In this document: positions 4,036-61,338 of the stretch, one piece after another
Numbering within the stretch: the first letter of the stretch is position 1
How the letters are laid out: every line of letters starts with the position of its first letter
Assembly (NCBI RefSeq): GCF_054482525.1
Contig: NZ_CM137006.1
Direction: 5' to 3' (one strand)
DNA length: 64,000 nucleotides
Notes under the pieces: model-generated
Databases searched by the model: none
Told to the model about the DNA's origin: nothing
What the model saw: the letters and a program-made list of their open reading frames with translations, nothing else
Translations under genes and position numbers: made by a program

Positions 4036-4113
4036 GTAGGCCGGATAAGGCTTTTACGCCGTATCCGGCAGCCGTTGCCTGATGCGACGCTCGCGCGTCT
4101 TATCAGGCCTACA
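4036..4113. repeat. REP/BIME palindromic elements (two inverted REP units)
   Basis: gtaggccggataagg...gccgtatccggca and gcctgatgcgacgc...cttatcaggcctac palindromes in the infB-rbfA spacer. Confidence 0.8.
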
Positions 4114-5578: not shown

Positions 5579-5944
<366 letters not shown>

Positions 5945-5960: not shown

Positions 5961-5990
5961 AAAAGGGGGCCTGAGTGGCCCCTTTTTTCA
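5961..5990 (+). terminator. Rho-independent terminator after rpsO
   Basis: aaaagggggcctgagtggcccc followed by tttttt. Confidence 0.85.
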
Positions 5991-6190
5991 AGCTGACGGC
6001 AGCAATTCACTGGAAACTAATGTATTGTTGCTATGAATGATCTTCCGTTGCAGAGGTTCGCGCGGCTAATGAGAGGCTTTACCCACATTGGGCTGGGTTA
6101 GGGTTGTCATTAGTCGCGAGGATGCGCAGAAGATCGGGTATTAACACCAGTGCCGTAAGGTACTGTCTAAGAAAGAGAAAGGATATTACA

Positions 6191-12858: not shown

Positions 12859-13389
12859 TCAAATAAACCCCTGTTTATTATAAAGTTCTTCAGCGAGAGT
12901 TTCCCCGTGCTCATCGAAAAAAGCATCGGCGATAGTTAAATTTTCTGCCTTAGGATTTGCCGTTATTTTGCTACCATTGGCATCAAATTCGAGCGCGATA
13001 GCGGTCTCCGAACCCCACCAGTAATAATAAATTAGCGCAAAATTATTTTCCCCTGGCGTAATAAACTTCTCGATTCTCCGCACACAGGCCATGAGTGGCA
13101 TGAAGATTTCATAGCTCTCTGAGAGAAATATGTGATCCATCGTGACTATCTGTGTTTCTTTATTAAAGTTGATATGTTCGGCATAAATATTCTTTTCACT
13201 TTCACCAGAATTACAAGCTGCAAGATTGTTAAGCATTTTTGCAGGATCGCCGTACAACCGCTGCTTCTCGATAAACCATGGTAACCAGTCGTCATAGTCT
13301 TTGATATTTGTTGCTGGTGAATGGAAAAACTTCTCGAGGTTACTCTCGGTAATATGTGCATGAAGAAAAAAGGAAGCCGGTTCACTCAT
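12859..13389 (-). CDS. Hypothetical protein, 176 aa, no recognisable motif (orphan ORF in AT-rich islet)
   Basis: Clean ATG-start ORF with plausible RBS; AT-rich codon usage unlike flanking genes; no signal peptide; not part of the K-12 gene order as I know it. Confidence 0.6.
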   Translation of the reverse strand: MSEPASFFLHAHITESNLEKFFHSPATNIKDYDDWLPWFIEKQRLYGDPAKMLNNLAACNSGESEKNIYAEHINFNKETQIVTMDHIFLSESYEIFMPLMACVRRIEKFITPGENNFALIYYYWWGSETAIALEFDANGSKITANPKAENLTIADAFFDEHGETLAEELYNKQGFI

Positions 13390-13547: not shown

Positions 13548-14267
13548 ATGGGGCGTAAAGGACTACTTGCTATTGTATTGTTGAGCCTGTTTATCGCCAT
13601 GATTTTTCAATTTTTCTGGCCTGCCCCACACGATGAGCACGTTTTCCTGCTGGTTGAAAAACCTGTCGTACCGTCTTTAAAAATCATTCACGCCGGCGAC
13701 CAGTTATTTATCCGCATTCTGAAAGCGGAAGATAAGCTGGAACTGTGGGCAAGCACCAACAACAAGCCTTACGAACTCTATAAAACCTGGACTATATGCG
13801 CGTGGTCTGGTGGCTTAGGGCCAAAGCACAAACAGGGGGATGGTAAAAGCCCGGAAGGTTTTTATGCCACCAACAAAGGGTTACTTAACCCAAACAGTCG
13901 CTATCATCTGGCATTTAATATTGGTTACCCGAATGCTTACGATCGGGCAAACGGCTACACCGGTGATTTCATTATGGTTCACGGAAACTGCCTTTCGGCG
14001 GGCTGCTATGCCATGACCGATGCTGGTATTGAAGAGATTTATCAACTGGTGGCGCAGGCGCTGAATAGCGGGCAGAAGAGCGTGCCGGTGCATATCTTCC
14101 CGTTTGCGATGAACGAAGAAAATATGCGCCAGGCGCAGGTATGGCCGGAATATAATTTCTGGCGTATGTTGAAGCCCGGCTATGATTACTTTGAAAAAAA
14201 TCGCCGATTGCCAACCATCACCATTGAAAACCGGCGTTATAAAATCAGCCCAACAACTCATCCTTAG
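13548..14267 (+). CDS. YafK/DpaA-like L,D-transpeptidase-fold protein (YkuD domain) with N-terminal signal/anchor
   Basis: 239 aa; hydrophobic N-terminus; YkuD catalytic motif HGNCLSAGC; long-range similarity to E. coli YafK (…SGGLGPK…[10 protein letters not shown]…[11 protein letters not shown]…GCYAM…PGYDYFE…). Confidence 0.75.
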
Positions 14268-25363: not shown

Positions 25364-26227
25364 ATGAAACAACACCAATCGGCGGATAATTCTCAGGGCC
25401 AGCTTTACATTGTACCGACGCCAATCGGCAATCTGGCGGATATCACCCAGCGTGCGTTGGAGGTATTACAGGCCGTTGATCTGATTGCCGCCGAGGATAC
25501 GCGTCACACCGGTTTATTGCTGCAACATTTTGGGATTAATGCTCGGTTGTTTGCGCTGCACGACCATAACGAACAACAAAAAGCCGAAACGCTGCTGGCG
25601 AAGCTGCAAGAGGGGCAAAACATTGCGCTGGTTTCCGATGCCGGAACGCCGCTAATTAACGATCCTGGCTACCATCTGGTGCGTACCTGCCGTGAAGCGG
25701 GGATTCGCGTGGTGCCGCTACCCGGGCCGTGTGCTGCTATCACTGCGTTAAGCGCCGCGGGTTTACCATCCGATCGTTTTTGTTATGAAGGCTTTTTACC
25801 TGCCAAATCAAAAGGCCGCCGTGATGCGCTAAAAGCCATTGAAGCGGAGCCGCGCACGCTGATTTTTTATGAATCTACCCACCGTCTGTTAGATAGCCTG
25901 GAAGATATCGTTGCGGTATTAGGCGAATCCCGCTACGTCGTTCTGGCGCGTGAGCTGACCAAAACCTGGGAAACCATTCACGGCGCGCCCGTTGGCGAGC
26001 TGCTGGCGTGGGTCAAAGAAGATGAAAACCGTCGCAAAGGCGAAATGGTACTGATTGTCGAAGGCCATAAAGCACAGGAAGAAGACTTACCCGCCGATGC
26101 CCTGCGCACGCTGGCGCTGCTACAGGCAGAACTGCCACTGAAAAAAGCGGCGGCGCTGGCAGCAGAAATTCACGGCGTGAAGAAAAATGCGCTGTATAAG
26201 TATGCACTGGAGCAGCAGGGAGAGTGA
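25364..26227 (+). CDS. rsmI: 16S rRNA (cytidine1402-2'-O)-methyltransferase RsmI
   Basis: 287-aa ORF, tetrapyrrole-methylase fold motifs ([15 protein letters not shown]). Confidence 0.93.
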
Positions 26228-26276
26228 TTACAGGCGTCGCAGCAGGAATAGCGTTGCAACGCCTGTAGCAGGCGAG

Positions 26277-27044
26277 TTAACGACGACACATCTCATCAAT
26301 CATGCATGTGAAATAGTTATGCAGCCATAAAAATGAAGCCGGGATAGCGGTAGAGACTTTAGCCGTGAGAAAACGTTCTGTCGCATCCTGCTTTCCTTCG
26401 CCAGTCACCAGTAACAAAACTTCGTGGGCATTGAGAATATCCTTCAGGCCTAAGGTGATCCCACGAGTCACGGGACGGCCCGCGGTTTTTAACATCTCAT
26501 GTTGCTGTGTTCTGGCATCAAGTTGACTGATATGGCAGGCCGGTTGCAGGCTTTCTCCCGGTTCGTTCAGCCCAAGATGACCGTTTTTCCCCAACCCGAG
26601 AACGCATAAATCCAGACCGCCTTTGCGCGCAATCAGGTGCGTTACCCGTTCGCACTCTGTCTCATTTATCTCTTCGGAGCGAAAGCTGATGAGCTGGTCT
26701 TCACGCAGCCCCAGCGGCTGCACGATATGCTGTTGCAGGAAAGTTTCGCAGGTACCAGGCATAGTTAATGGCAGATCCACCCATTCGTCGAGCTTCACGA
26801 AGGTGAGCTGGCTGACATCAACCTGCTGCTGGTGGATTTTTTCTACCAGATAATGATACGTCAGTAATGGCGTGGCTCCGGTCGCCAGGCAAATCACTGC
26901 ATCCGGTTTGCTACGGATCACTGCCAATAAATATTCGCTGGCACGTTCACTTAACGCCATATAGTTTTCAACTTGCTGAAGGGTTTGCACAGGATGAAAT
27001 TCCTTAAGTAAAGAGGCACCACCAGACGCAGTGCCTCGTTCCAT
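26277..27044 (-). CDS. agaI: Putative galactosamine-6-phosphate deaminase/isomerase AgaI
   Basis: 255-aa ORF, NagB/GlcN6P-deaminase-like; last gene of aga cluster. Confidence 0.88.
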   Translation of the reverse strand: MERGTASGGASLLKEFHPVQTLQQVENYMALSERASEYLLAVIRSKPDAVICLATGATPLLTYHYLVEKIHQQQVDVSQLTFVKLDEWVDLPLTMPGTCETFLQQHIVQPLGLREDQLISFRSEEINETECERVTHLIARKGGLDLCVLGLGKNGHLGLNEPGESLQPACHISQLDARTQQHEMLKTAGRPVTRGITLGLKDILNAHEVLLLVTGEGKQDATERFLTAKVSTAIPASFLWLHNYFTCMIDEMCRR

Positions 27045-27836
27045 TTACAAAATGCCGAATGCGGAACAAACAATAGAGAGCACAAAAGTCACGCCGATTA
27101 ACAGCACCGGATGCGCTTTTTTCACCCGCAGGAAGTAATACATCAGCAGGGTGTAGGCCATCGGTAAAATATTCGGGAAGACTTTATCGAAGAAATCCTG
27201 CTGCAGCGCGACGCTGTGGGTACTGTCGATGGCAAACGATGTCACCACGTTAATATGCACATACGAAGCGATCAGCCCGCCGATTACTGTGATCCCGAGG
27301 ATGGTTGCCGAACGGGCAATCATCTGCGAGTTCTCTCGCACTTTATCGATCGCCTTCACGCCGACTGAATAACCGACGTGGGTCCAGCCGACGCGCAGGA
27401 AAAAGATAAGCAGGTAAACGGCGAAAAATAGAATCGGCCCCAGCAGGTTTCCCTGGCTGGCAAATGATGAGCAAATCCCCGCCATAATCGGCAACAAAGT
27501 GAACCAGAAAATCGCATCGCCAATCCCGGCGATTGGGCCAAACAGTGCCACTTTGAGGCCTTTAATGGTGTCGCGGTTTTCTCCTTTTTCTTCCATCGAA
27601 ATTAATAACCCCATCAGGAATCCGACCAGATTCGGGTGGGTATTAATAAATTCGAGGTTATCTTTCATCGCCGCGCTTAGGCCCGGTTTGTCGTCCTTAT
27701 AAATCTTTTTCAGGATCGGCAACATCGCCCAGGTAAAACCGCCCGCCTGCATCCTTTCGTAGTTAAAGCTTGCTTGTAGCAGTGACGAACGAAAGCCCAG
27801 ACGGGTGATATCTTTTTTACTGATTTCAGATCCCAT
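27045..27836 (-). CDS. agaD: PTS galactosamine-specific EIID
   Basis: MGSEISKKDITRLGFRSSLLQASFNYERMQ… 263 aa from internal ATG; mannose-family IID. Confidence 0.9.
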   Translation of the reverse strand: MGSEISKKDITRLGFRSSLLQASFNYERMQAGGFTWAMLPILKKIYKDDKPGLSAAMKDNLEFINTHPNLVGFLMGLLISMEEKGENRDTIKGLKVALFGPIAGIGDAIFWFTLLPIMAGICSSFASQGNLLGPILFFAVYLLIFFLRVGWTHVGYSVGVKAIDKVRENSQMIARSATILGITVIGGLIASYVHINVVTSFAIDSTHSVALQQDFFDKVFPNILPMAYTLLMYYFLRVKKAHPVLLIGVTFVLSIVCSAFGIL

Positions 27837-28629
27837 TGCTGTAGTCCTCTTCTTCATTTTTACTGGCAACGGGCTGCGGTTGCGCTTGCTGCCGGGATTT
27901 CGCATTGAAAAACTCATACACCGCAAAGCCTGCACCCAGTACGGCAACCGGCAACAGGTTGCTGACCTGGATGTAGCAAACAAACAGGAAGCCAGCGATC
28001 AGGTAAGGGATATATTGCGCTTTGAACATCACGCGCAGCAGCAAGCCAAAACCAACGGCAGGCAGAATACCACCAGCCACTTCAAAGCCGTGGGTCAGCC
28101 AGGCGGGCATCGCTTTCACCAGCGCCTGCATCGCCCCTTGTGCCAGGTAAGTACAGAGGAACGCAATCACCGCATACGCTGAAGCGACGATGAGCATCGT
28201 TGTCCAGTTAAGTCGGGAAAACGCTGCCGTATCCGCCTCTTTCGCGCATTTATCGGCTTTGGTCATAAATAATGAGAAAGCGGAATAGAAGAACAGAATG
28301 ACGTACTGCATTAACAAACTAAACGGCAGGCCAAGACCAATTGCCGTTTTGGCATCAACGCCCGTAGACCATGCAATGACGGTGGTCATCAGACCCGCCA
28401 TAATCGGGTTGGGCGGCTGAACACCACCTGCAGGGGTTAATCCGGCGAAAGCCAACTCTGTCAGACCACCGGTAATTAAGCCAGTCTGAATATCACCGAG
28501 AATAGCGCCAGTTAGGGTACAAACGATTATCGGGCGGAATAAAAATAAGGCTTCCAGCCAAAAATCAATCCCCAGAAAGAAAACTAACGCCGCCAGGGAT
28601 AATCCCTGGAGTAGGGTTATTTCATGCAT
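27826..28629 (-). CDS. agaC: PTS galactosamine-specific EIIC
   Basis: 267-aa membrane ORF, mannose-family IIC; 11-bp overlap with agaD. Confidence 0.9.
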   Translation of the reverse strand: MHEITLLQGLSLAALVFFLGIDFWLEALFLFRPIIVCTLTGAILGDIQTGLITGGLTELAFAGLTPAGGVQPPNPIMAGLMTTVIAWSTGVDAKTAIGLGLPFSLLMQYVILFFYSAFSLFMTKADKCAKEADTAAFSRLNWTTMLIVASAYAVIAFLCTYLAQGAMQALVKAMPAWLTHGFEVAGGILPAVGFGLLLRVMFKAQYIPYLIAGFLFVCYIQVSNLLPVAVLGAGFAVYEFFNAKSRQQAQPQPVASKNEEEDYSNGI

Positions 28630-28667
28630 TTTTATTACCTCAAACCAATATTAAGGCGATTTTAGAT

Positions 28668-29144
28668 TTAGTCAGGGATTTGTTCTTTTTGATCGCCAGG
28701 GACGTCCTGAATGAAAACATTCACGCCACGTTGTTTAATAAAACGTAAGTCCGTGAGATCCTGGTCATCGACATAAACTTTACTGCTGATTTGCTTTTTC
28801 CCTTCCGAGAAATGCATATTGCCGACGTTGACATCTTTCAGGTCAATGCCACCTTCTACCAATTTACGTACCGTTTGTGGCGTACGGCAAATCAGGAAGA
28901 TCTTTTGATGCGGTGCAGCTTTGCCGATGACATTAATGGTTTTTTCGATAGTAAAGAAACGAATGCCAAAGCCGTAGGTTTCCGCGGTAATACCCATTAA
29001 TTTCTGTTGAATATCATCGTTAGCGACAACATCATCCACGACTACCAGCAGATTTGCACCGATGGTAGATGTCCAGGTCACACCAACCTGGCCATGAACC
29101 AGACGGTTATCAATACGGGTTAAGAGAATATTTGGACTGCTCAT
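28668..29144 (-). CDS. agaB: PTS galactosamine-specific EIIB
   Basis: 158 aa, mannose-family IIB (LTRIDNRLVHGQV). Confidence 0.9.
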   Translation of the reverse strand: MSSPNILLTRIDNRLVHGQVGVTWTSTIGANLLVVVDDVVANDDIQQKLMGITAETYGFGIRFFTIEKTINVIGKAAPHQKIFLICRTPQTVRKLVEGGIDLKDVNVGNMHFSEGKKQISSKVYVDDQDLTDLRFIKQRGVNVFIQDVPGDQKEQIPD

Positions 29145-29310
29145 TGTGTAATCCTCACCATAAAGTTGAATAATATAATCTTTTTAAATATATTATTGTT
29201 GCGGTATTGTACTGATGTATTTATTAAGGTTTAGTTATCTCCTTTACCATTAAGGCACTCCCCGATATTAATCGGGAAGTACATTGGGATAAATCATAAA
29301 AAACTAATGA

Positions 29311-30183
<873 letters not shown>

Positions 30184-31338
30184 TTATGCCTGCCACGGAT
30201 GAATGATTACGCCTTGCACCACGCGGTTAACGGTGCCACTGGCTGATGGGGTATCCGGCGTATTGCCCATGTGCAGCGACTGCATCAGTGCAAACGTCTG
30301 GGCGTACATCAGGAAGCAAAATGCCTGCTCAACGTCGATAAAGTGACGGGACGGCGGCAGGATGATATGTGGACCGGCGGTAATAACGTCGTTGCTTTCC
30401 GCGGCGATAGCGATTACGCGCATCGCCTGGTTATCGCGGCGAAGTTCAGCCAGCAGATCAAGATCATACTGACGGGTGTAAGGGTGGCTGGAGACAAATA
30501 CCACCACCAGCGTTTCGTTATCGACCAGCGATTTCGGGCCATGACGGAATCCGGTCGGGGAATCATAAAAGGCCGCCAGTTTACCCGCCGTCAGTTCCAG
30601 TACTTTCAGCGCCGACTCGCGTGCTGCGCCCTGTAAGCCACCGCTGCCGAGATAAACGATCCGTTTCCACGGTGCGTAACCAAACACACCTTCGCTGAAA
30701 TCGCCCAGTGAGGTCAGGATCGCCTGGCAACGATCCGCCACGTCGCGGAAGCTCTGGCTATTGATCGTCTCAGGTGCGAAAACCGCGAGGCAGCTGGCCA
30801 TCATGGTGGTAATGCTGCTGGTCATCGCAAAGCCGCGATCGTGCGTTTCTGCGGGCATCAGCAGGGCAAACGCGTTGTCGCTGTTGATCGCGTTTTGGTA
30901 AAGAGCGCCCGCTTCGTTGCAGGTGATCGGCAGGTGATAGCATTCTGGTACAAATTGATTTGCCAGTTCCACGGCGGCGACGCTTTCCGGGCTGTTGCCG
31001 GATCGACCGAAGGAGATCAACAGTAGCGGATGAGCTGGATTCAGGTAGTCCATCGGATTAGTGACCAGATCGGTGGTCGGTACGGCGCTGAAGTTTTTAC
31101 CGGTATGGCTGGCGAGCCACGGCGCGATGATGTCACCGATAAATGCCGAGGTTCCGGCTCCGGTCAGGATTACCCGCAGATTCTCTTTGAGCAGTAACGG
31201 TTCAAGGAAGTTATTGAGCGCGGAACGTAGCGCGTCGATGTTGGTGAGTGAACGGATCCATGCGCGAGGCTGATGGCGGATCTCTTCTTCAGTCCATGTA
31301 CCGGTTGCGGCAGCAGCAGGGGTGTAATTTTCTGGCAT
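30184..31338 (-). CDS. agaS: Putative sugar isomerase/deaminase AgaS (SIS domains)
   Basis: 384-aa ORF with tandem SIS domains. Confidence 0.92.
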   Translation of the reverse strand: MPENYTPAAAATGTWTEEEIRHQPRAWIRSLTNIDALRSALNNFLEPLLLKENLRVILTGAGTSAFIGDIIAPWLASHTGKNFSAVPTTDLVTNPMDYLNPAHPLLLISFGRSGNSPESVAAVELANQFVPECYHLPITCNEAGALYQNAINSDNAFALLMPAETHDRGFAMTSSITTMMASCLAVFAPETINSQSFRDVADRCQAILTSLGDFSEGVFGYAPWKRIVYLGSGGLQGAARESALKVLELTAGKLAAFYDSPTGFRHGPKSLVDNETLVVVFVSSHPYTRQYDLDLLAELRRDNQAMRVIAIAAESNDVITAGPHIILPPSRHFIDVEQAFCFLMYAQTFALMQSLHMGNTPDTPSASGTVNRVVQGVIIHPWQA

Positions 31339-31391
31339 AACTCAATCCTTAGTCTGATGAACTTGACGTCGGGCGTTGTCGCTTTCGCTTA

Positions 31392-31520
31392 CCTTTCGTT
31401 TCATTTCACTTGGTGATGTCTTTCGTTGATTAAAATCTATAGAAAAGAAACTGAAAGTTCAATGGAGAAAAAAGAAATAAAACGAAATTTGTGATCATTG
31501 AAAGAAAAGACAAGGGAAGA
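31392..31520. promoter_or_regulatory. agaS promoter with AgaR-operator-like repeats
   Basis: cctttcgtttcatttcacttgg fits the AgaR operator pattern; further ctttcgtt/aaacgaaa copies nearby. Confidence 0.6.
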
Positions 31521-31557
31521 TTAAAGGATTGCGTAATGACGTCGCTATGTTCACCGA

Positions 31558-31615
31558 TTGCCGGATGCGGCGTACCGTAGGTCGGATCAGACGCGTTAGC
31601 GTCGCATCCGACACC
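31558..31615. repeat. REP palindromic element pair
   Basis: gccggatgcggcgtaccgtaggtcggatcagacgcgttagcgtcgcatccgacac. Confidence 0.75.
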
Positions 31616-31688
31616 GCTGCACAGATCAAAAAGAAAGAAAAAGAAAGGCCTTACGGGGGAAGTGAAGGCCCAATAATGGAGCAAACCA

Positions 31689-32822
31689 TCAAAACGAAGC
31701 TAATTGACCCTGAATCCAGATTTGTTGCACATGCAGCCCGCTATCCAGCGCAACGACGCTGGCGCGTTTGCCCGGTTTAAGCGATCCCAGAACACCATCA
31801 ACACCCAGCATTCGCGCCGGATGCAGCGACGCCATATGGATGGCTTCCGCAGGCGTTACGCCCGTTAACTCGACCATGTTGCGCACTGCTGCATCGACAG
31901 ATAGCGTACTGCCCGCCAGCCCACCGGACGCGGTACGGACAACGCCACCGTGCATCTGCACTTCTTCGCCACATAACGTATAGCGACCATCCGGCATCCC
32001 AGCTGCCTGCATCGCGTCGGTGATCAGTACGATTCTCTCTTTCGCACAGCAACAACACAGCGACATCGCCGCCGGATGCACATGATGACCATCGGCTATC
32101 AGTTCCAGCCAGGCGCGCTTGTCCGTTAATCCCGCGCCAACCATTCCCGGTTCGCGGTGATGTAAACCTGTCATCCCGTTATAGCAATGCACCAGGCCGT
32201 CGGCACCAGCATCAAATGCGGCGCGGGTTTGTTGCCAGGTCGCCGCGCTATGCCCCAGCATCACCCTTACGTTTTGCTGTTTAAGATGGCGGATGGCCTG
32301 CAATGCCCCTTCTTTTTCCGGTGCCAGCGCTACCACGCGCAAGGTGTGCTGAGAAACGGCAATCAATTGATCCAGCTCGGCAATTTCAAGCTCGCGAAAC
32401 AACTCCGGCGGATGCGCGCCTTTATTCTGCGGCGTGAAGTACGGTCCTTCGAGATAACTCCCCAGCACTTGCGCACCAGGTCCGCCGCGTTGGCAACGTT
32501 GAGCAATACGTTTCAGCGCCGCATGAATGGTATTAAGCGGCGCGGTTACGGTGGTCGGTAACCAACTGCCGACACCTTCGCGTGCCTTGTGCATTGCCAG
32601 CTTGTCGAGTACATCCGGCGCGTCATCCATTACATCAACGCCCGCACCACCATGTACATGGGTGTCGATGTAAGCGGGGCAGAGCAGTTCCGCATCGCGT
32701 TCAGTCACGCCCACTGGAATCGGTTCGATTGCTGCGATTACACCGTCAGCAATACGCAACTGATGGTCATCGAGCCATCCCTCTTCAGTCAGCAGCCTTC
32801 TGGCGCGCAGAACGTGTGTCAT
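31689..32822 (-). CDS. agaA: N-acetylgalactosamine-6-phosphate deacetylase AgaA (full length)
   Basis: MTHVLRARRLLTEEGWL…; about 377 aa; NagA-like metal-binding motifs; intact here. Confidence 0.9.
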   Translation of the reverse strand: MTHVLRARRLLTEEGWLDDHQLRIADGVIAAIEPIPVGVTERDAELLCPAYIDTHVHGGAGVDVMDDAPDVLDKLAMHKAREGVGSWLPTTVTAPLNTIHAALKRIAQRCQRGGPGAQVLGSYLEGPYFTPQNKGAHPPELFRELEIAELDQLIAVSQHTLRVVALAPEKEGALQAIRHLKQQNVRVMLGHSAATWQQTRAAFDAGADGLVHCYNGMTGLHHREPGMVGAGLTDKRAWLELIADGHHVHPAAMSLCCCCAKERIVLITDAMQAAGMPDGRYTLCGEEVQMHGGVVRTASGGLAGSTLSVDAAVRNMVELTGVTPAEAIHMASLHPARMLGVDGVLGSLKPGKRASVVALDSGLHVQQIWIQGQLASF

Positions 32823-33253
32823 ATTCCTTCCTCGACCGGACATTCTTCATGGCAGCGGCCTAACTCGTCTACCAGACTGGTCAGCCCACGGTGTCCACAC
32901 TCCAGCGCCTGCACACGGAACTCTTCACCGCTTAACCCTTCGCGCTCCAGCACCATCTCCAGTAGCAGTTGCAAATTGGTGCCGGTGATCACTTCACAGC
33001 CCGGTTTTTGCATCGCCAGCGTTGAAGCTACGCGAAACGGCGTGCCGCCCAGCAAATCTGTCAGAAAAACAATGCCGTCTTCACAATCCAGTTGGGCGAT
33101 GGCCTCTTCAAGCTGCGATGTAAGCAGCGCGGTGCTTGAGGTTTCGGGAAAATCGATGGCAATAAACTGCGATTGATCGCCGAGGATTTGCTTCATTGCT
33201 TTTTCCATGCCACTGGCAAACCCGCCATGCCCTGTCAAAATAATACTTAACAT
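32819..33253 (-). CDS. agaF: PTS N-acetylgalactosamine-specific EIIA
   Basis: 144 aa, mannose-family IIA (MLSIILTGHGGFASG). Confidence 0.88.
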   Translation of the reverse strand: MLSIILTGHGGFASGMEKAMKQILGDQSQFIAIDFPETSSTALLTSQLEEAIAQLDCEDGIVFLTDLLGGTPFRVASTLAMQKPGCEVITGTNLQLLLEMVLEREGLSGEEFRVQALECGHRGLTSLVDELGRCHEECPVEEGI

Positions 33254-33270
33254 CTAATACCTCATTGTAT

Positions 33271-34155
33271 TTAAAGGAAATGGCAGAATTTACCGACGAT
33301 ACCGAGAACCACGGTAACTGCAATCAGGCGCAGCGGACTCCAGCCGCGGCGTACCAGCCAGAACATGGTCAGGGTGTAGACCAGCGGTAAGAAGGCAGGC
33401 ATCAGTTTGTCGATAACATCAGCCTGTAACTTAACCACTGCGTCGCCCGCTGTGATTTCCAGCGTGGTGCTTAAACGAACATAGGTTGCCACCAGCGCGC
33501 CGATTACCGTCATCCCAACGATAGACGCAGCATGGCCGACTTTTTTGGTATTCGCTTTAATGAGTGGAATCGCCGCCACGCCCATGCGGTAAGCATAATG
33601 CGCCAGACCAAAACGCAGCCCCAGGTGTACCACGTTGAACAGCACAATAAAGACGACTGCGCCAAGAATAGAGCCTTGTAGCGCGAGGCTTGCGCCTATC
33701 CCGCCACAAATCGGCAGTAGCGTCAGCCAGAACATCGCATCGCCAATCCCGCCAAGTGGCGCACCGACGGCAATTTTGGTGCTCTGAATACTGTTAACGT
33801 CCTGCTTAGAACGCTCCATAGCAAGGATAATGCCGATAACAAACGTCACCAGAAACGGATGGGTATTGAAGAAACCCATATGCCCCTTCATGGCGCGCGC
33901 CAGGTCGCGTTTATTAGTGTGGATCTTTTTCAGAGCAGGCAGCAGACCGTACAACCAGCCGGAAGCCTGCATACGTTCGTAGTTAAAAGACGCTTGTAAC
34001 AGCATGGAACGCCAGGCGACGCGGTTGATATCTTTTTTCGTCAGCTCCGCGCCAATGCTCTGATCTTCATACACGTTTTCATTGACGCCAGTCAGCAATG
34101 TTTCTTCGTTTTCACTGACGTTCGGCAGGGTGGTTTGATTAGATGCCATCTTCAA
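33271..34155 (-). CDS. agaE: PTS N-acetylgalactosamine-specific EIID
   Basis: 294-aa membrane ORF paralogous to agaD. Confidence 0.88.
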   Translation of the reverse strand: MKMASNQTTLPNVSENEETLLTGVNENVYEDQSIGAELTKKDINRVAWRSMLLQASFNYERMQASGWLYGLLPALKKIHTNKRDLARAMKGHMGFFNTHPFLVTFVIGIILAMERSKQDVNSIQSTKIAVGAPLGGIGDAMFWLTLLPICGGIGASLALQGSILGAVVFIVLFNVVHLGLRFGLAHYAYRMGVAAIPLIKANTKKVGHAASIVGMTVIGALVATYVRLSTTLEITAGDAVVKLQADVIDKLMPAFLPLVYTLTMFWLVRRGWSPLRLIAVTVVLGIVGKFCHFL

Positions 34156-34918
34156 ATTCCTCTTTCTGTGCCGCAGGTTGAGTCGGTTCAGGAGATTTAC
34201 GCAGCAGGTCGATCAGCGCCATCGCCAGCGCGGCGGCAGCAATAGCCAGCACCGGTAACTTGAGCCAGGCTGCGGCAACAAAGCCCAGGATGAAGTAGGG
34301 GATGTAGACGTTTTTCATCATGATTTTCAGCAGTACGGCAAAACCGATCGCTGGCATGATGCCGCCCGCGACGCCGAGGCCGTCGATTAATCGTTGCGGC
34401 AGGACATCAATGATGGTTTTGGCATGTTCTGCGCCGAAGTAGATAGGCAGGAAAGCGCAGAGAAAATAGAAAGTGCCGAGTGCCAGCAGTGCCAGATAGT
34501 TCACGCGTTCAATGCCGCGAGTATCGGCGTTCTCTGCCATCCGGTCACAGCGGGACATTACGCCAGACATCACCGAGAACAGGAAGGTAATCCCCATCTG
34601 TACTGCGACAGCGAAAGGTACGGCGACACCGACTGCGACATCGGGTTTCACGCCAGTAGTAATGGCAAACGCCGTGCCGACGATAGTACCGATAATCACG
34701 TTAGGCGGCTGTGCGCCCGCCAGCGGGGCCAGCCCCATCCACACCAGTTCCAGCGTACCGCCGGTTAAAATACCGGTATGCAGATCGCCAAGTACCAGCC
34801 CGACTAACGGGCCGAGGACCACCGGGCGGTGCATATGGGTTAGGCCGTTAAACATATCCAGGCCAGCGATAAAGGCGATAATGCCCAACGCGAATGCCTG
34901 CAACAGACTGATTTCCAT
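34139..34918 (-). CDS. agaW: PTS N-acetylgalactosamine-specific EIIC (full length)
   Basis: 259-aa membrane ORF paralogous to agaC. Confidence 0.88.
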   Translation of the reverse strand: MEISLLQAFALGIIAFIAGLDMFNGLTHMHRPVVLGPLVGLVLGDLHTGILTGGTLELVWMGLAPLAGAQPPNVIIGTIVGTAFAITTGVKPDVAVGVAVPFAVAVQMGITFLFSVMSGVMSRCDRMAENADTRGIERVNYLALLALGTFYFLCAFLPIYFGAEHAKTIIDVLPQRLIDGLGVAGGIMPAIGFAVLLKIMMKNVYIPYFILGFVAAAWLKLPVLAIAAAALAMALIDLLRKSPEPTQPAAQKEEFEDGI

Positions 34919-34928
34919 GATGAATCCC

Positions 34929-35402
34929 TCAAAGTAATTTAAAGAGGTCCACTGCAGGCTCTGTCGGGACGCCCTGAACGAAGCATTCCACCCCAGCGGC
35001 TTTCAGGTCGTTAAATGCTGCAATATCGCCCGCATCTACAGAAACCGTTTTGGCGATTTGTTGCTTGCCATTGGCGTAGTGCATATTGCCAACGTTAATG
35101 CGATTCACCGGAACGCCACCTTTCACCAGCGTCAGGAAATCGGCAGGTGTTTTACAAACCAGCAGGATTTTCTGTCGATCGGCGGCGCGATGAATGTTGT
35201 CGATGACTTTTTGCAGCGTCCAGAAACGTACGGCGATCCCTTCTGCCAGTACCATTTCCATCAGGTTTTGTTGTACCGGATCTTCGGCAACCTCATCGTT
35301 GGCTACCAGCACCAGATTTGCCCCCGCAAATCCGACCCACTGAACGCCGACCTGACCGTGAATCAAGCGTTCATCAATCCGGCTTAAAACAATATTTGGC
35401 AT
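34929..35402 (-). CDS. agaV: PTS N-acetylgalactosamine-specific EIIB
   Basis: MPNIVLSRIDERLIHGQVG… 157 aa from internal ATG. Confidence 0.9.
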   Translation of the reverse strand: MPNIVLSRIDERLIHGQVGVQWVGFAGANLVLVANDEVAEDPVQQNLMEMVLAEGIAVRFWTLQKVIDNIHRAADRQKILLVCKTPADFLTLVKGGVPVNRINVGNMHYANGKQQIAKTVSVDAGDIAAFNDLKAAGVECFVQGVPTEPAVDLFKLL

Positions 35403-35424
35403 AGCGTGTTCCTCTTTGTTTTGC

Positions 35425-36705
35425 TTATTGGCCTTCACAGGCTGTGTGGTACTGCGCCAGGATGTCCTGAATATGGTTGATAATGAGTTCCCGTGGCGTT
35501 GGCTGCAGCTCGCCGGAGCGAACTTTCACGTATTGCAGCGGCAAATACTGGCTGATGAGCGGTAGCGGAATTGGTGAATCCGCCAGATTACGAACCAGAT
35601 GAGCGAAAGCGTCATCAATCTGGCTGTCCGGCCAGTAATAGCGCACGCGATCCGAGTAGCTATAACCACGTGCCAGACGACGCGCGTTGCCGTCACCGTG
35701 GTAGTGGCTTTGCCAGTATTCCGGGCGGTCGAGCATCACGTTTTCCAGTACCTGACGCAGACCGGAACAGGCTTTCGCTGGCACCAGTTCTTCTTCAATC
35801 GCCGCCAGAGAGAACAGAGCTTCACGCAGGGCGAAGGTCAGCGCCGGGCCAACTTTCAGAATGGCAAAGTGGTCAATCACCAGCTGGCGCAGCGATTGCG
35901 GCGTTTGATAATCGGTAGAGTGCGCTTCGAAAATCAGCGTTTCGTAGTTTTCGACCATCTGGCTTAAGGCGCTCGCTTTGGCGGGCTGATAATCAATAAC
36001 GTTGGTGTGATCGAATTCGACGCCGGGTTGTACCACCAGAGCAATGATGCGTGGCCAGATGGCACTCAGACCTTGCTTTTCAAAGGCGTGACGATGGGCT
36101 TCCAGCGTGGCGCGGGCGGCATCCGGCGTGGTGACCGCCAGCTCGCTTAAGGTTTCATGCGCGCCGCCAGGTACCGGCACTTCGGTACCAATGACATACT
36201 CCAAATCGGCTTCGCCAAAGTGTTCACGACAGGTTTCTTCCGCCACTTTCGCCAGACGTGCGGCGCGTTCAGCCACGATGTCATCAGTTAAGGGAACCGG
36301 ATCATCCTGACAGGACATGCTGCAATCAAGGTGAATTTTTTTGAATCCTGCCGCCACGTAGCTTTTAATCAAATCATCGGCATTGGCCATTGCCTGAGCG
36401 GCAGGCAGGTTTTGCCAGCGGTTTGGACCCAGATGGTCGCCACCCAGAATCAACGCATCCTGTGGGAAATTCAATGAGTCGGCGAGCTGACAAACAAAGC
36501 CGCGAAAATCGGCGGGCGTCATTCCGGTATAGCCGCCGAACTGGTCTACCTGATTGGAGGTTGCTTCAATCAGTAACGGCGTTTGGTTTGCACTGGCGTA
36601 GCGGATTGCAGCCTCCAGCACCAGCGGATGTGCGGAACAAACGGCATAAATTCCATTTGTTTTGCCCGCTTTGTGCTGTCTCACCATTTCTGTCAGATGT
36701 TTCAC
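35425..36705 (-). CDS. kbaZ: Tagatose-bisphosphate aldolase non-catalytic subunit KbaZ
   Basis: 426-aa ORF, GatZ/KbaZ family. Confidence 0.92.
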
Positions 36706-36953
36706 TTTCCTCTCCAGTTCAGATTACTGCGATATTAATCTTTCGTTTTGTTTCAGTTGATACTGCGCCATGGTGAGATAAAAATAAAACGAAAGATAAT
36801 GGTTTTCTGATCTGATTCACAAAAGAAACATAATGAAAGCCACTGAAACGAGAGTAGCTTGCGCCAATGGGTAAGGTGGGCTTGCATTTGCTTAATAGAA
36901 AGGCGTTAATAGGCAAAACGAAATGAAACGAAAGTTTTACGAAAGGACTTACT
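36706..36953. promoter_or_regulatory. Divergent kbaZ/agaR promoter region with multiple AgaR-operator-like repeats
   Basis: ctttcgttttgtttcagttga plus inverted copies aaaacgaaag and aaacgaaatgaaacgaaagtttt. Confidence 0.6.
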
Positions 36954-37763
36954 ATGAGTAATACCGACGCTTCAGGTGAGAAGCGAATGACAGGCACCAG
37001 CGAGCGACGAGAACAGATCATTCAGCGTCTGCGACAGCAAGGGAGTGTGCAGGTTAACGATCTGTCGGCATTGTATGGCGTATCTACTGTGACGATCCGC
37101 AACGATCTGGCGTTTCTGGAAAAGCAGGGGATCGCTGTGCGTGCCTATGGCGGCGCGTTGATCTGCGATAGCACGACGCCGTCAGTCGAGCCATCAGTGG
37201 AAGATAAAAGCGCGCTGAATACCGCAATGAAACGCAGCGTTGCGAAAGCTGCCGTTGAGTTGATTCAGCCAGGTCATCGGGTGATCCTCGATTCCGGGAC
37301 CACCACTTTTGAGATTGCTCGTCTGATGCGCAAGCACACTGACGTAATTGCGATGACCAACGGTATGAACGTAGCTAATGCGTTGCTGGAAGCGGAAGGC
37401 GTTGAGCTGCTGATGACCGGCGGGCATTTGCGCCGTCAGTCGCAATCTTTTTACGGCGATCAGGCTGAACAATCGCTGCAAAATTACCACTTCGATATGC
37501 TGTTTCTTGGCGTAGATGCGATCGATCTGGAGCGCGGCGTCAGCACGCATAATGAAGATGAAGCCCGTTTAAACCGCCGGATGTGCGAAGTTGCGGAACG
37601 GATCATCGTGGTCACCGATTCCAGTAAGTTCAATCGTTCCAGTTTACATAAGATCATTGATACTCAACGTATCGACATGATCATTGTTGATGAAGGCATT
37701 CCTGCGGATAGTCTGGAAGGACTGCGAAAGGCTGGGGTTGAAGTGATTCTGGTCGGGGAGTGA
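36954..37763 (+). CDS. agaR: DeoR-family repressor AgaR
   Basis: 269 aa, N-terminal HTH ([23 protein letters not shown]) and DeoR C-terminal domain. Confidence 0.93.
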
Positions 37764-38765: not shown

Positions 38766-40337
38766 TCAGGTCACCGGTGCCGGGTTAAACACCGCCAGCT
38801 GGTTATGCAGTCCCCATTGATCTGAGAAGGTTTTCTTCTTCCCGCTGGCGACGTCGAGAATAAAGTGGAACAACTTCCAGCCCACCTCTTCAATAGTTTC
38901 TTCGCCGGTAGCGATGGTGCCCGCATTAATATCCATTAAATCAAACCAGCGGTTCGCCAGCTCGGTGCGGGTCGCCATTTTAATGACGGGTACCGCCATC
39001 AGGCCGTATGGCGTACCACGACCGGTCGTAAACACTTGCACGGTGATACCCGAAGCCACCTGTTGCGTGCCACAGACAAAATCGCTGGCTGGCGTCGCGG
39101 CGTAAATTAATCCGCGTTTAGTCGGGCGTTGACCGGGCGACAGCACTTCAACAATTGCACTTTTACCCGATTTAGCAATGGAGCCGAGCGCTTTCTCCAC
39201 CACGTTTGCCAGACCGCCTTTCTTGTTGCCCGGCGAAGGGTTGGCGCTGCGGTCGGTTTTTCCCATATTGAGATAGTTATCGTACCACTCCATCTCCTCC
39301 AGCAGCCGTTTGCCGACCTCTTCGTTCACTGCGCGTGGTGTCAGCAGATGGATCGCGTCACGCACTTCCGTGACTTCTGAAAACATCACCGTTGCGCCGC
39401 AGCGCACCAGTAGATCAGACGCATAGCCAACCGCCGGGTTTGCCGTTACGCCAGAAAACGCATCGCTACCGCCGCACTGCATGCCGACAACCAGTTCTGA
39501 AGCCGGACAGGTTTCTCGCTGCCGTTGATTCAGTTTGTGCAAATGGCGTTCGGCGACCTGCAAAATATCCTAGACCATGGACTGAAAACCGACATGCTTT
39601 TCATCCTGCAAACTGACAATGCTGGCGCTTTCTACTGGAATAGCTTGCACATCATCCGTTCCAGTCAGCAGGCGCTCAGGCTGCAACTTTTCACAACCCA
39701 GACCAATCACCATTACTTCGCCGCCAAAGTTAGGGTTCAGCGAAATATTGTGGATGGTACGAATAGGCACAACTGCCGCCGGTGCGTTAATCGCCACGCC
39801 ACAACCGTACAAATGATTCAGCCCCACCACGCCATCGACGTTCGGGTATTTCGGTAGCAGATCGCGTTCAATGATTTTTACTACATAGTCCACCACGCCT
39901 GCCACACAGTGGACGCTGGTGGTGATGCCGAGCAGGTTTTTGGTGCCCACGCTGCCATCGGCATTGCGATAGCCCTCAAAGGTGTAACCTTCAAGCGGCG
40001 GTAAGGGTTCCGGGACTTTGGTTGCAAGTGGCAGCGTGTGTAACGGCGGCGCTTCCGGTAGTACAACCATTGATTCGTCGATCCAGCTTCCGCGTGGGAT
40101 TGCGCGCACGGCGTAACCAATCACTTCGCCATAACGAATAATTTCACCATTAGCCGGAATGTCCAGCAATGCGACTTTATGCCCCTGGGGAATATGTTCA
40201 ATTAATTCCAGCCCATCCGGAAAACGCGTTCCTGCTTTCAGGCCATTATCATTAACAATAATTGCCACATTATCTGTGTCGTGAACTTTTATATAAAACG
40301 CAGTTGGCGTTTCTTGTCTGATTTCGATGTTGGCCAT
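38766..40337 (-). pseudogene. garD: Galactarate dehydratase GarD interrupted by an in-frame amber codon
   Basis: Two collinear ORFs in the same frame; minus-strand reading …[16 protein letters not shown]… with TAG at 39570..39572; no frameshift. Confidence 0.8.
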
Positions 40338-45026: not shown

Positions 45027-45403
<377 letters not shown>

Positions 45404-59880: not shown

Positions 59881-60635
<755 letters not shown>

Positions 60636-60739
60636 ATCAGCATACTTGTCCTTAGCCTTCTGCAGTGACAGCTGGTAGTACAGCGTGCTTCTGGCCAGCC
60701 CTGCAGCCTTTAACAGGTCAGACTGGCAGTGTCCGCACC

Positions 60740-61261
60740 TCAGGCTCCGGATGACTTTCGTTTTTTCTCCAGCTCCTGGCGCTTTTTTTCCAGGAGATGC
60801 TCCTGCATGGCTTTCAGATATGCATTTTCTGCGCGAAGATAACGCAGCTCATTCTTCATCTCTTCCGGCGTCATGTTTGCCTCGTTTTCATGGGTATCAT
60901 CAGAACGGGTCATGCTTTTCTCCTTCCTGCGCCTGATAAAGGCCTCATTACCAGATTTGCGGTAGCCTTTTATCCAGTTTTTAACCGTGTTGTGGCTGGG
61001 AATGTTAAACCGGGCAGCTACCCGGGGTAGAGACTCAGAATGCCCGAGAGCATAAAGAACCACGCAAAGTTTATCTTCAGGAGAATAGCTACGCTTGTGT
61101 CTGCAATCCAGTGCCCGAGGACCGTGAAGAAGAAAAAGATTAATCCAGTGTGAGAGGCTGGTGTGAGAAAGTTGAAAGAGTTTTGCCGTAGAAATGATGC
61201 CTGCATGACCAGCCAGGTAGTGATTTACAGCGGCAAGTTTTACTTCAAATGAATGTTTCAT
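60740..61261 (-). CDS. insJ: IS3-family transposase OrfA (HTH), IS150 InsJ-like
   Basis: MKHSFEVKLAAVNHYLAGHAGIISTAKLFQLSHTSLSHWINLF… 173 aa. Confidence 0.88.
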   Translation of the reverse strand: MKHSFEVKLAAVNHYLAGHAGIISTAKLFQLSHTSLSHWINLFLLHGPRALDCRHKRSYSPEDKLCVVLYALGHSESLPRVAARFNIPSHNTVKNWIKGYRKSGNEAFIRRRKEKSMTRSDDTHENEANMTPEEMKNELRYLRAENAYLKAMQEHLLEKKRQELEKKRKSSGA

Positions 61262-61338
61262 AAACTGCACCTTCAGATGTCAGATTATGTCCAACATTTG
61301 GGGTGCAGTTCAGTTTACGCCGCATCCGGCACCTGTCT

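Follow-up and report, generated by a model that had tools for sequence, protein, structure and literature searches.

General organization of the aga/gam cluster

The analysed window, a stretch of 64,000 nucleotides, contains a region which we read, with a probability of roughly 0.92, as a wild-type and complete E. coli aga/gam regulon. It comprises 13 genes at positions 26277-37763 (Table 1), in the order agaR, kbaZ-agaV-agaW-agaE-agaF-agaA and agaS-kbaY-agaB-agaC-agaD-agaI, with agaR on the plus strand and divergent from the other 12, which are on the minus strand. This order and the coordinates were carried over to the window from the record of isolate SCU-102, which is 99.986% identical over 21 kb and whose PGAP annotation names every aga/gam gene; the order in ATCC 8739 agrees with it. 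Both transporters are complete, agaV/W/E for N-acetylgalactosamine and agaB/C/D for galactosamine, with agaF as the common IIA gene, and agaA, agaS, kbaY, kbaZ, agaI and agaR are likewise intact. The genes for EI, HPr and the tagatose-6-P kinase, as well as nagA, are located outside the window. No internal stop was found in any of the 13 genes, and a Shine-Dalgarno-like sequence was observed 5' of every start with the exception of that of agaI. The first-pass annotation had called the cluster complete, and the 13 genes in canonical order without internal stops bear this out. Such an intact cluster is already known and ordinary, and it is notable only beside that of K-12.

Table 1. Genes and other features of the aga/gam region, with their positions in the window
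Feature	Position	Strand	Description
agaI	26277..27044	-	Deaminase-like, 255 aa; dispensable for growth on either sugar
agaD	27045..27836	-	IID, galactosamine PTS, 263 aa
agaC	27826..28629	-	IIC, galactosamine PTS, 267 aa
agaB	28668..29144	-	IIB, galactosamine PTS, 158 aa
kbaY (agaY)	29311..30171	-	Tagatose-1,6-bisphosphate aldolase, 286 aa
agaS	30184..31338	-	Galactosamine-6-phosphate deaminase/isomerase, 384 aa; role from PMC3668189
agaA-agaS intergenic	31339..31688	-	350 nt; REP-like palindromic element, then T/C-rich repeats upstream of agaS
agaA	31689..32822	-	N-acetylgalactosamine-6-phosphate deacetylase, 377 aa; 5' half missing in K-12
Stretch deleted in K-12	32238..34552	-	Delimited by two imperfect direct repeats, one in agaW and one in agaA
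agaF	32819..33253	-	IIA common to N-acetylgalactosamine and galactosamine PTS, 144 aa; missing from K-12
agaE	33271..34149	-	IID, N-acetylgalactosamine PTS, 292 aa; missing from K-12
agaW	34139..34918	-	IIC, N-acetylgalactosamine PTS, 259 aa; truncated in K-12
agaV	34929..35402	-	IIB, N-acetylgalactosamine PTS, 157 aa
kbaZ (agaZ)	35425..36705	-	Tagatose-bisphosphate aldolase subunit, 426 aa, GTG start
agaR-kbaZ control region	36706..36953		Divergent; in K-12 it holds the promoters PR and PZ and the AgaR operators, as published
agaR	36954..37763	+	DeoR-family repressor of the cluster, 269 aa; annotated in SCU-102; no internal stop

No compositional signs of horizontal acquisition were found between 22 and 42 kb of the window. 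A search of Rfam at the gathering threshold gave no match inside the aga cluster; elsewhere in the window rnpB, SraG, the S15 leader and naRNA4 were matched. Four antisense or intergenic ORFs (32589-33176, 34512-34937 and 31529-31780 on the plus strand and 31430-31684 on the minus strand) gave no hit in Pfam and were dismissed as spurious rather than counted as genes.

The agaW-agaE-agaF-agaA segment and its PTS components

The first-pass annotation had described agaW, agaE, agaF and agaA as full-length and tightly packed, with products of 259, 294, 144 and about 377 aa. All four are minus-strand ORFs at the positions where they had been placed, without internal stops, and the sizes hold except for agaE, in which counting from an upstream TTG at 34155 gives 294 aa and counting from the annotated ATG gives 292. 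The AgaE of the window aligns over 1-292 of the NCBIfam AgaE model, whose length is 292 positions. As for agaA, its longest possible ORF extends to 32843, which gives 384 aa. The packing is indeed tight: agaW and agaE overlap by 11 nt, 17 nt separate agaE from agaF, and agaF and agaA overlap by 4 nt (ATGA). Base-level alignment with ATCC 8739, the check on which frameshifts or stops would have come to light, gave no frameshift, the same lengths and at most two substitutions per protein. In addition, a 5-kb stretch is 100% identical to the annotated agaA (nagA), agaF, agaE and agaW of SCU-102, 19KM1776 and PCN033, which are independent natural isolates of human, dog and pig-associated origin. 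Because of this identity in three genomes, and since equivalog cut-offs were exceeded, the four-gene pattern is not due to chance.

The four component types of a mannose-family PTS enzyme II (IIA, IIB, IIC and IID) are all present, with family profiles above cut-off. Using NCBIfam models, AgaF reached 217.7 bits (NF040761, cut-off 130), AgaV 319.9 bits (NF008508, cut-off 180), AgaW 410.8 bits (NF040757, cut-off 300) and AgaE 617.6 bits (NF040760, cut-off 500). In Pfam, AgaW corresponded to EII-Sor and AgaE to EIID-AGA, and EIIA-man and Amidohydro_1 were matched as well; the families matched by the PTS proteins were PF03610, PF03609 and PF03613. His9 of AgaF aligns with the histidine of GTHG in the IIA-Man structures 1PDO and 1VRC. 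AgaV has a conserved His15 within RIDERLIHGQ and AgaB an equivalent histidine, both of them in a RID-RL-HGQV motif. From established knowledge of IIA-Man and IIB-Man, we take these three residues to be the phosphorylation sites.

ManXYZ, the E. coli mannose PTS (IIAB-Man, IIC and IID), belongs to the same transporter family, with EIIA-man, sorbose-type IIB, EII-Sor and EIID-AGA domains, and its IIA histidine is conserved in the AgaF of the window. However, the system of the window has IIA and IIB on separate polypeptides, a single IIA for two IIB/IIC/IID sets and galactosamine derivatives as substrates, and its proteins score below the cut-offs of mannose-specific models.

Identity of agaA

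Despite being labelled nagA by PGAP, the gene at 31689-32822 is the paralogue agaA. Its product scored 289.1 bits with TIGR00221 (NagA/AgaA family, cut-off 225.65) and 224.5 bits with NF008371, the equivalog of true NagA, for which the cut-off is 483. The metal-binding and catalytic motifs are present (HVHGG at 55, LEGP at 124, LGHS at 189, VHCYN at 211 and ITDAM at 267), and the corresponding blocks are conserved when the protein is aligned with human 7NUT and B. subtilis 2VHL. At residues 55-57 the protein carries HxH, whereas E. coli NagA carries QxN. The assignment to agaA follows from this difference and from the score below the NF008371 cut-off.

That the gene is instead a second nagA, with a role in N-acetylglucosamine catabolism and not in the aga pathway, would fit the PGAP product name (N-acetylglucosamine-6-phosphate deacetylase), the TIGR00221 match above cut-off and the published complementation, in which AgaA and NagA each deacetylate both substrates (PMC3668189). 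We consider this highly improbable, given not only the NF008371 score and the HxH motif but also the overlap with agaF within the aga operon and the published qRT-PCR, where Aga but not GlcNAc induced agaA (PMC3668189). Published genetics further indicate that agaI is unneeded and that agaA is dispensable, nagA substituting for it (PMC3668189). As a consequence of the dispensability of agaA, the decisive genes in the gap of K-12 are agaW, agaE and agaF.

The K-12 deletion and the distribution of the intact segment

In K-12 MG1655 (b3131-b3141) the same locus and flanks are found, with prlF-yhaV on one side, and its agaR, kbaZ, agaV, agaS, kbaY and agaBCDI show 97.6-98.3% DNA identity to the window. 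However, alignment revealed that 2305 bp, corresponding to about 32248-34552 of the window, are missing from K-12, where agaW (a remnant of 402 nt) and agaA are annotated as pseudogenes, agaE and agaF are absent and the phenotype is Aga- Gam-. When the K-12 locus was compared with the window by BLAST, two blocks were obtained which overlapped by 10 nt at the junction. The missing stretch is bounded by imperfect direct repeats of 10 nt, CGCTGTGACC at 34552-34543 in agaW and CGCGGCGACC at 32247-32238 in agaA; the distance from one repeat start to the other is 2305 bp. In K-12 these 2305 bp were lost by a deletion between the two short repeats, and its state is the derived one. The same 2.3-kb deletion, together with the Aga- Gam- phenotype, has been described for K-12 (PMC3668189), and annotation, alignment and literature thus concur with the first-pass annotation, according to which K-12 has lost agaE and agaF and has truncated agaW and agaA.

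The opposite polarity, in which the segment was acquired here by insertion and the K-12 arrangement is ancestral, would account for no more than the fact that the window has the segment and K-12 lacks it, and its probability is practically nil. It is already refuted by the truncated ORFs of K-12, as the junction falls within two reading frames, each of which survives as an annotated pseudogene fragment. In addition, the junction is placed on a 10-nt direct repeat, as a deletion would give, the G+C content of the segment (0.52-0.57) is typical of its surroundings, and the literature terms the K-12 state a deletion (PMC3668189). The distribution among genomes also speaks for a deletion in K-12: the full segment was present in 4930 of the 5426 complete E. 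coli genomes (about 91%) and the K-12 junction in only 371, the best-matching 60 of which appear to be K-12 laboratory derivatives. With the intact segment in such a proportion of the complete genomes, the intact state is the E. coli norm and K-12 is the exception. Identity of at least 99% over the 5-kb stretch was restricted to 4 of the 5426 genomes.

Comparison with E. coli C and O157:H7

The aga/gam regulon of E. coli C was reportedly treated by Brinkkötter et al. in 2000. For comparison with this regulon (Hu et al. 2013, PMC3668189), the sequence of ATCC 8739 was used (NC_010468.1, 601335-612809). Its 13 genes are those of the window, with order and orientation unchanged, and their frames have the same length save AgaI (255 aa in the window and 251 aa in ATCC 8739). 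Leaving AgaI aside, the proteins of the window are 97.6-100% identical to those of ATCC 8739: AgaW, AgaV and AgaD are identical, and AgaE, AgaF, AgaA, AgaB, AgaC, KbaY and AgaR are one or two residues off. AgaE and AgaF have one substitution each (I224V and E26D, respectively), and AgaA is identical at 375 of 377 residues. The other changes include V18F in AgaC, V12M in AgaR (268/269 identical residues with respect to both K-12 and ATCC 8739), nine substitutions in AgaS (375/384 identical) and six in KbaZ (420/426 identical). All of the substitutions are conservative or are common to the natural isolates SCU-102 and PCN033, and the alleles of the cluster give no sign of decay. AgaI shares 241 identical residues with its ATCC 8739 counterpart, and its last nine or so residues are unlike those of K-12 and ATCC 8739, and it is four residues longer. 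Its C-terminus differs because the yraHIJK fimbrial operon is located downstream of agaI in ATCC 8739 and K-12, whereas the window runs directly into rsmI.

The O157:H7 strains EDL933 and Sakai have a full-length agaVWEFA, as in the window, and are Aga+ (PMC3668189). O157:H7 carries an amber codon at codon 8 of agaC, which results in a Gam- phenotype, and another at codon 72 of agaI, and in the spinach-outbreak O157:H7 the change G91S in AgaF gives an Aga- phenotype (PMC3668189). In the window, codon 91 of agaF is GGC (Gly), and codon 8 of agaC and codon 72 of agaI are both CAG. None of the known inactivating lesions, namely the K-12 2.3-kb deletion, AgaF G91S, agaC Q8amber and agaI Q72amber, is therefore found in the window.

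Control regions

The divergent agaR-kbaZ region is 98.4% identical to that of K-12 and 98.0% identical to that of ATCC 8739, without gaps. It is the densest 250-nt interval of the whole 64 kb for the pentamers CTTTC/GAAAG, and the agaA-agaS intergenic region is the third densest. In line with what Ray and Larson (2004) reportedly described, we take these pentamers to be putative AgaR operators. The published PS promoter of K-12 falls in the agaA-agaS region, and promoter and operators are here assigned to it putatively. This region is 96.8% identical to that of ATCC 8739, without gaps, and 89.5% identical to that of K-12, with 12 gap columns; two small ORFs in it had no Pfam match. A simple sigma-70 consensus scan matched no promoter on the minus strand of either control region, and in the agaR-kbaZ region it gave only plus-strand matches. 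Counts from the consensus promoter and terminator scan were at or below shuffle expectation and were uninformative.

Predicted pathway and phenotype

According to what has been established for E. coli C, O157:H7 and K-12 (PMC3668189, PMC4694137), AgaV (IIB), AgaW (IIC), AgaE (IID) and AgaF (IIA) would form a mannose-family PTS permease that imports and phosphorylates N-acetylgalactosamine, yielding Aga-6-P, and AgaB, AgaC and AgaD, using the same AgaF, would do likewise for galactosamine. Aga-6-P would be deacetylated to Gam-6-P by AgaA or by NagA, which is encoded elsewhere, and AgaS would deaminate and isomerise Gam-6-P to tagatose-6-P. The latter would be phosphorylated by a kinase from outside the cluster, and the KbaY/KbaZ aldolase would cleave the product. 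The agaR, kbaZ and agaS promoters would be under repression by AgaR. The proposal of the first-pass annotation that both the N-acetylgalactosamine and the galactosamine PTS are encoded holds at the level of sequence, all the parts being intact, and the strain is predicted to be Aga+ Gam+, with growth and expression deduced from the genes.

A cluster that is intact but silent, in which a PTS missense change or a control-region change blocks the uptake of one or both sugars, seems unlikely. It could be suspected from the single AgaF change that suffices for an Aga- phenotype in the spinach-outbreak O157:H7 (PMC3668189), from lineage-specific substitutions of the window such as AgaC V18F and AgaF E26D, from the divergence and gaps of the agaA-agaS control region with respect to K-12, and from the failure of the simple sigma-70 scan to detect a coding-strand consensus promoter. 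However, residue 91 of AgaF is Gly, three of the proteins are identical to those of ATCC 8739 and others have one or two mostly conservative differences, the same alleles are present without decay in three independent natural isolates, and the agaA-agaS spacer is gapless and closely similar to that of ATCC 8739. The reading of a wild-type, presumably functional locus is preferred, and at the aga/gam locus the source strain is a typical wild-type E. coli.

It was also considered whether the lineage of the window, a rare one with only 4 of the 5426 genomes at 99% identity or more over the 5-kb stretch, has aga alleles of altered regulation or specificity, or whether an intact aga/gam cluster plus a private garD knockout reflects a niche-specific shift in sugar-acid versus amino-sugar use. 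The candidates for altered aga alleles would be the changed C-terminus of AgaI, the substitutions in AgaS and KbaZ and the agaA-agaS spacer with its divergent sequence. Nothing among the observations points to either idea, and we regard them as very improbable.

The window adds no new biology to the aga/gam pathway. Annotation transfer based on K-12 would under-call four genes of this locus. Mucin-derived amino sugars are gut nutrients, which gives the pathway some applied relevance, and Aga utilisation is used to tell O157:H7 outbreak strains apart.

Apart from the finding on the cluster, the most unusual feature noted was in garD, where codon 256 reads as a stop (E256*; TAG, window position 39572), a change matched in 0 of the 5426 genomes.

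Organization of the agaA-agaF-agaE-agaW segment

Six-frame ORF listing placed agaA, agaF, agaE and agaW, all uninterrupted, on the minus strand exactly inside positions 31689-34918, where the first-pass annotation had reported four full-length ORFs. The lengths it had assigned to AgaW, AgaF and AgaA were also right, but that of AgaE was off by two codons, having been counted from a TTG rather than from the annotated ATG at 34149. The ATG is preferred because the NCBIfam AgaE model, of 292 positions, aligns from 1 to 292. The tight packing described for these genes was likewise found: agaW and agaE overlap by 11 nt, 17 nt separate agaE from agaF, and agaF and agaA overlap within an ATGA. All the starts of the four genes are preceded by a GAGG/AGGA-type ribosome-binding sequence. 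Internal stops, which the annotation had proposed to look for in these ORFs, were absent from them and from all 13 aga/gam genes. The gene content and integrity of the cluster were demonstrated.

Coordinates of features in the window
Feature	Position	Strand	Description	Source
agaA	31689-32822	minus	377 aa from annotated start; 384 aa from first ATG (31689-32843)	six-frame ORF listing
agaF	32819-33253	minus	144 aa	six-frame ORF listing
agaE	33271-34149	minus	292 aa from annotated ATG; 294 aa from TTG (33271-34155)	six-frame ORF listing
agaW	34139-34918	minus	259 aa	six-frame ORF listing
REP/BIME-like element	31540-31620	minus	palindromic
agaI-rsmI junction	26228-26276
rsmI	25364-26227	plus
garD	38766-40337	minus	galactarate dehydratase
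IS1397 transposase	~59913-61261	minus	IS3 family
yhbW-mtr interval, first gene	~12859-13389	minus
yhbW-mtr interval, second gene	~13548-14267	plus
rnpB	45027-45403			Rfam
SraG	5961-6132			Rfam
S15 leader	5617-5731			Rfam
naRNA4	4039-4109			Rfam

Family assignment of the proteins

AgaF, AgaE, AgaW and AgaV scored above the curated cut-offs of their NCBIfam equivalogs (217.7 against 130, 617.6 against 500, 410.8 against 300 and 319.9 against 180, respectively), and the Pfam matches were EIIA-man, EII-Sor, EIID-AGA and Amidohydro_1. His9 of AgaF aligned with the GTHG histidine of the IIA-Man structures, and His15 of AgaV lies within RIDERLIHGQ. AgaA exceeded the cut-off of the NagA/AgaA family model TIGR00221 (289.1 against 225.65) but fell far under that of the true-NagA equivalog NF008371 (224.5 against 483). 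The PGAP name 'nagA' therefore denotes the family, the gene itself being the paralogue agaA. The alternative that this gene is a second nagA is contradicted by these profile scores, by the operon context and by the published induction pattern. The HxH, E, H, H and D motifs are all in AgaA, and the matching blocks are conserved in structure alignments with human and B. subtilis NagA. The HxH occupies residues 55-57 (IDTHVHGG), as it does in B. subtilis NagA (IDIHIHGG), whereas E. coli and human NagA carry QxN there (IDVQLNG/IDVQINGG). The metal sites of AgaA and NagA within one cell may accordingly be of different types, which is a property of the family and not of this window.

Comparison with ATCC 8739 and close relatives

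ATCC 8739 also has all 13 aga/gam genes, with the same protein lengths except for AgaI. AgaW, AgaV and AgaD of the window are identical to those of ATCC 8739; AgaE (I224V), AgaF (E26D) and AgaA (I356V, S372G) show few substitutions, one or two residues differ in AgaB, AgaC, KbaY and AgaR, six in KbaZ and nine in AgaS. Three point lesions have been published (PMC3668189): Gly91Ser in AgaF, in spinach-outbreak O157:H7 that is Aga-; an amber replacing codon 8 of agaC, in EDL933 and Sakai, which are Gam-; and a further amber at codon 72 of agaI. None of them is in the window, where these codons are GGC, CAG and CAG, respectively.

When positions 31000-36000 were used as megablast query against 5426 complete E. 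coli genomes, 5318 were matched. Identity was 100% in three of them (SCU-102, 19KM1776 and PCN033), PGAP annotating kbaZ, agaV, agaW, agaE, agaF and 'nagA' (agaA) beneath the match, and did not exceed 99.5% over the aga region in any other genome. Close matches are so few that the source must come from a lineage with little sampling. It is unlikely that the cluster is silent through missense or regulatory change: nothing speaks positively for this, as several natural isolates share these alleles and the residue known to be critical is unaltered.

Against SCU-102, a human commensal, three bases differ in 21 kb and one base plus one 3-nt indel in the remaining 43 kb, giving 5 differences in 64 kb. 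One of the three, at agaI codon 29 (26958), is non-synonymous: residue 29 is Met in the window, SCU-102 has Ile, and both ATCC 8739 and K-12 have Thr. The kbaY difference at 29692 is synonymous.

The K-12 deletion

In K-12 MG1655, agaW and agaA are annotated as pseudogenes and agaE and agaF are missing. By BLAST, the K-12 locus aligned with the window as two collinear blocks, one ending at 34543 and the other restarting at 32247; on the K-12 side the two blocks share 10 nt. The junction coincides with a pair of imperfect direct repeats, CGCTGTGACC at 34552-34543 (agaW) and CGCGGCGACC at 32247-32238 (agaA), whose starts are 2305 bp apart, and reads CGCTGCGACC in K-12. A deletion between short repeats would be expected to have this form. 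The mapped gap agrees with the '2.3 kb deletion' that renders K-12 Aga- Gam- (PMC3668189). Annotation, alignment and literature therefore concur with the earlier statement that K-12 has lost agaE and agaF and has truncated agaW and agaA. Among the four genes, it is the loss of agaW, agaE and agaF that explains the K-12 phenotype, agaA being dispensable because nagA substitutes for it (PMC3668189).

The DNA missing in K-12 (32260-34530) was present in 4944 of the 5426 genomes and full-length in 4930, and a 400-nt probe over the K-12 junction was contiguous in only 371. The best 60 of these 371 were named K-12 strains, familiar laboratory derivatives of K-12 (MG1655, DH5alpha, C600, J53, DH1, NCM3722 and others) or laboratory strains whose coordinates are close to those of MG1655. 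The intact cluster, an already known feature shared by about 91% of the complete genomes of E. coli, is therefore the ordinary condition and K-12 the exception. Both these counts and the truncated reading frames of K-12 refute that the segment is an insertion into an ancestral K-12 arrangement.

Pathway and regulation

According to the literature (PMC3668189 and PMC4694137), AgaVWE with AgaF would take up and phosphorylate N-acetylgalactosamine, and AgaBCD with the same AgaF, galactosamine. Aga-6-P would be deacetylated by AgaA or NagA, Gam-6-P deaminated and isomerised to tagatose-6-P by AgaS and not by AgaI, and tagatose-1,6-bisphosphate cleaved by KbaY/KbaZ. The agaR, kbaZ and agaS promoters would be under AgaR, a DeoR-type repressor. 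At the level of gene content, the expectation that this strain encodes both PTS systems is supported, and the cluster would be expressed and allow growth on both sugars.

Both control regions are conserved, that of agaR-kbaZ being 98% identical to K-12. The agaA-agaS control region (350 nt) is 96.8% identical to ATCC 8739 and 89.5% to K-12 (12 gap columns), this spacer being the part of the cluster most divergent from K-12. For CTTTC/GAAAG density in the 64 kb, the agaR-kbaZ region ranks first and agaA-agaS third, an enrichment that would fit AgaR operators. A consensus sigma-70 scan of both regions gave no coding-strand match. The agaA-agaS spacer also holds, just downstream of agaA, a REP/BIME-like element (…GTCGGATGCGACGC…GCCGCATCCGGCA…).

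Other features of the window

The window lacks the four-gene fimbrial operon yraHIJK, which separates agaI from rsmI in K-12 and ATCC 8739; here rsmI directly follows agaI. This direct junction was contiguous in 1821 of the 5426 genomes and, therefore, yraHIJK is a common presence/absence polymorphism. Its absence accompanies an altered AgaI C-terminus (26277-26320): the last ~9 residues are unlike those of K-12 and ATCC 8739, and at 255 aa the protein exceeds their 251 aa by 4 residues. As K-12 homology stops at 26320, the yra-operon breakpoint is inside the agaI 3' end. AgaI has been reported as dispensable for growth on both sugars (PMC3668189).

The garD gene carries a premature amber, E256* (GAG to TAG, 39570-39572), due to a single base (39572, A in the window and C in SCU-102), which splits it into ORFs of 255 and 265 aa. 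No perfect match to the 401 nt around this stop was found in the 5426 complete E. coli genomes (the best three were 99.8% identical, with one mismatch), so E256* is a private mutation of the source strain or else an error of sequencing. Unless it is suppressed, galactarate use is predicted to be lost.

Between yhaL and cyuA the window, like SCU-102, carries an IS1397 transposase gene. The sole indel relative to SCU-102, three extra bases (GTT) at 61313, is about 50 nt past this gene and adjoins the REP-like sequence TACGCCGCATCCGGCA. Finally, the yhbW-mtr interval contains two genes, annotated in SCU-102 as an L,D-transpeptidase-family protein and a hypothetical protein, which ATCC 8739 lacks, yhbW and mtr being adjacent there.
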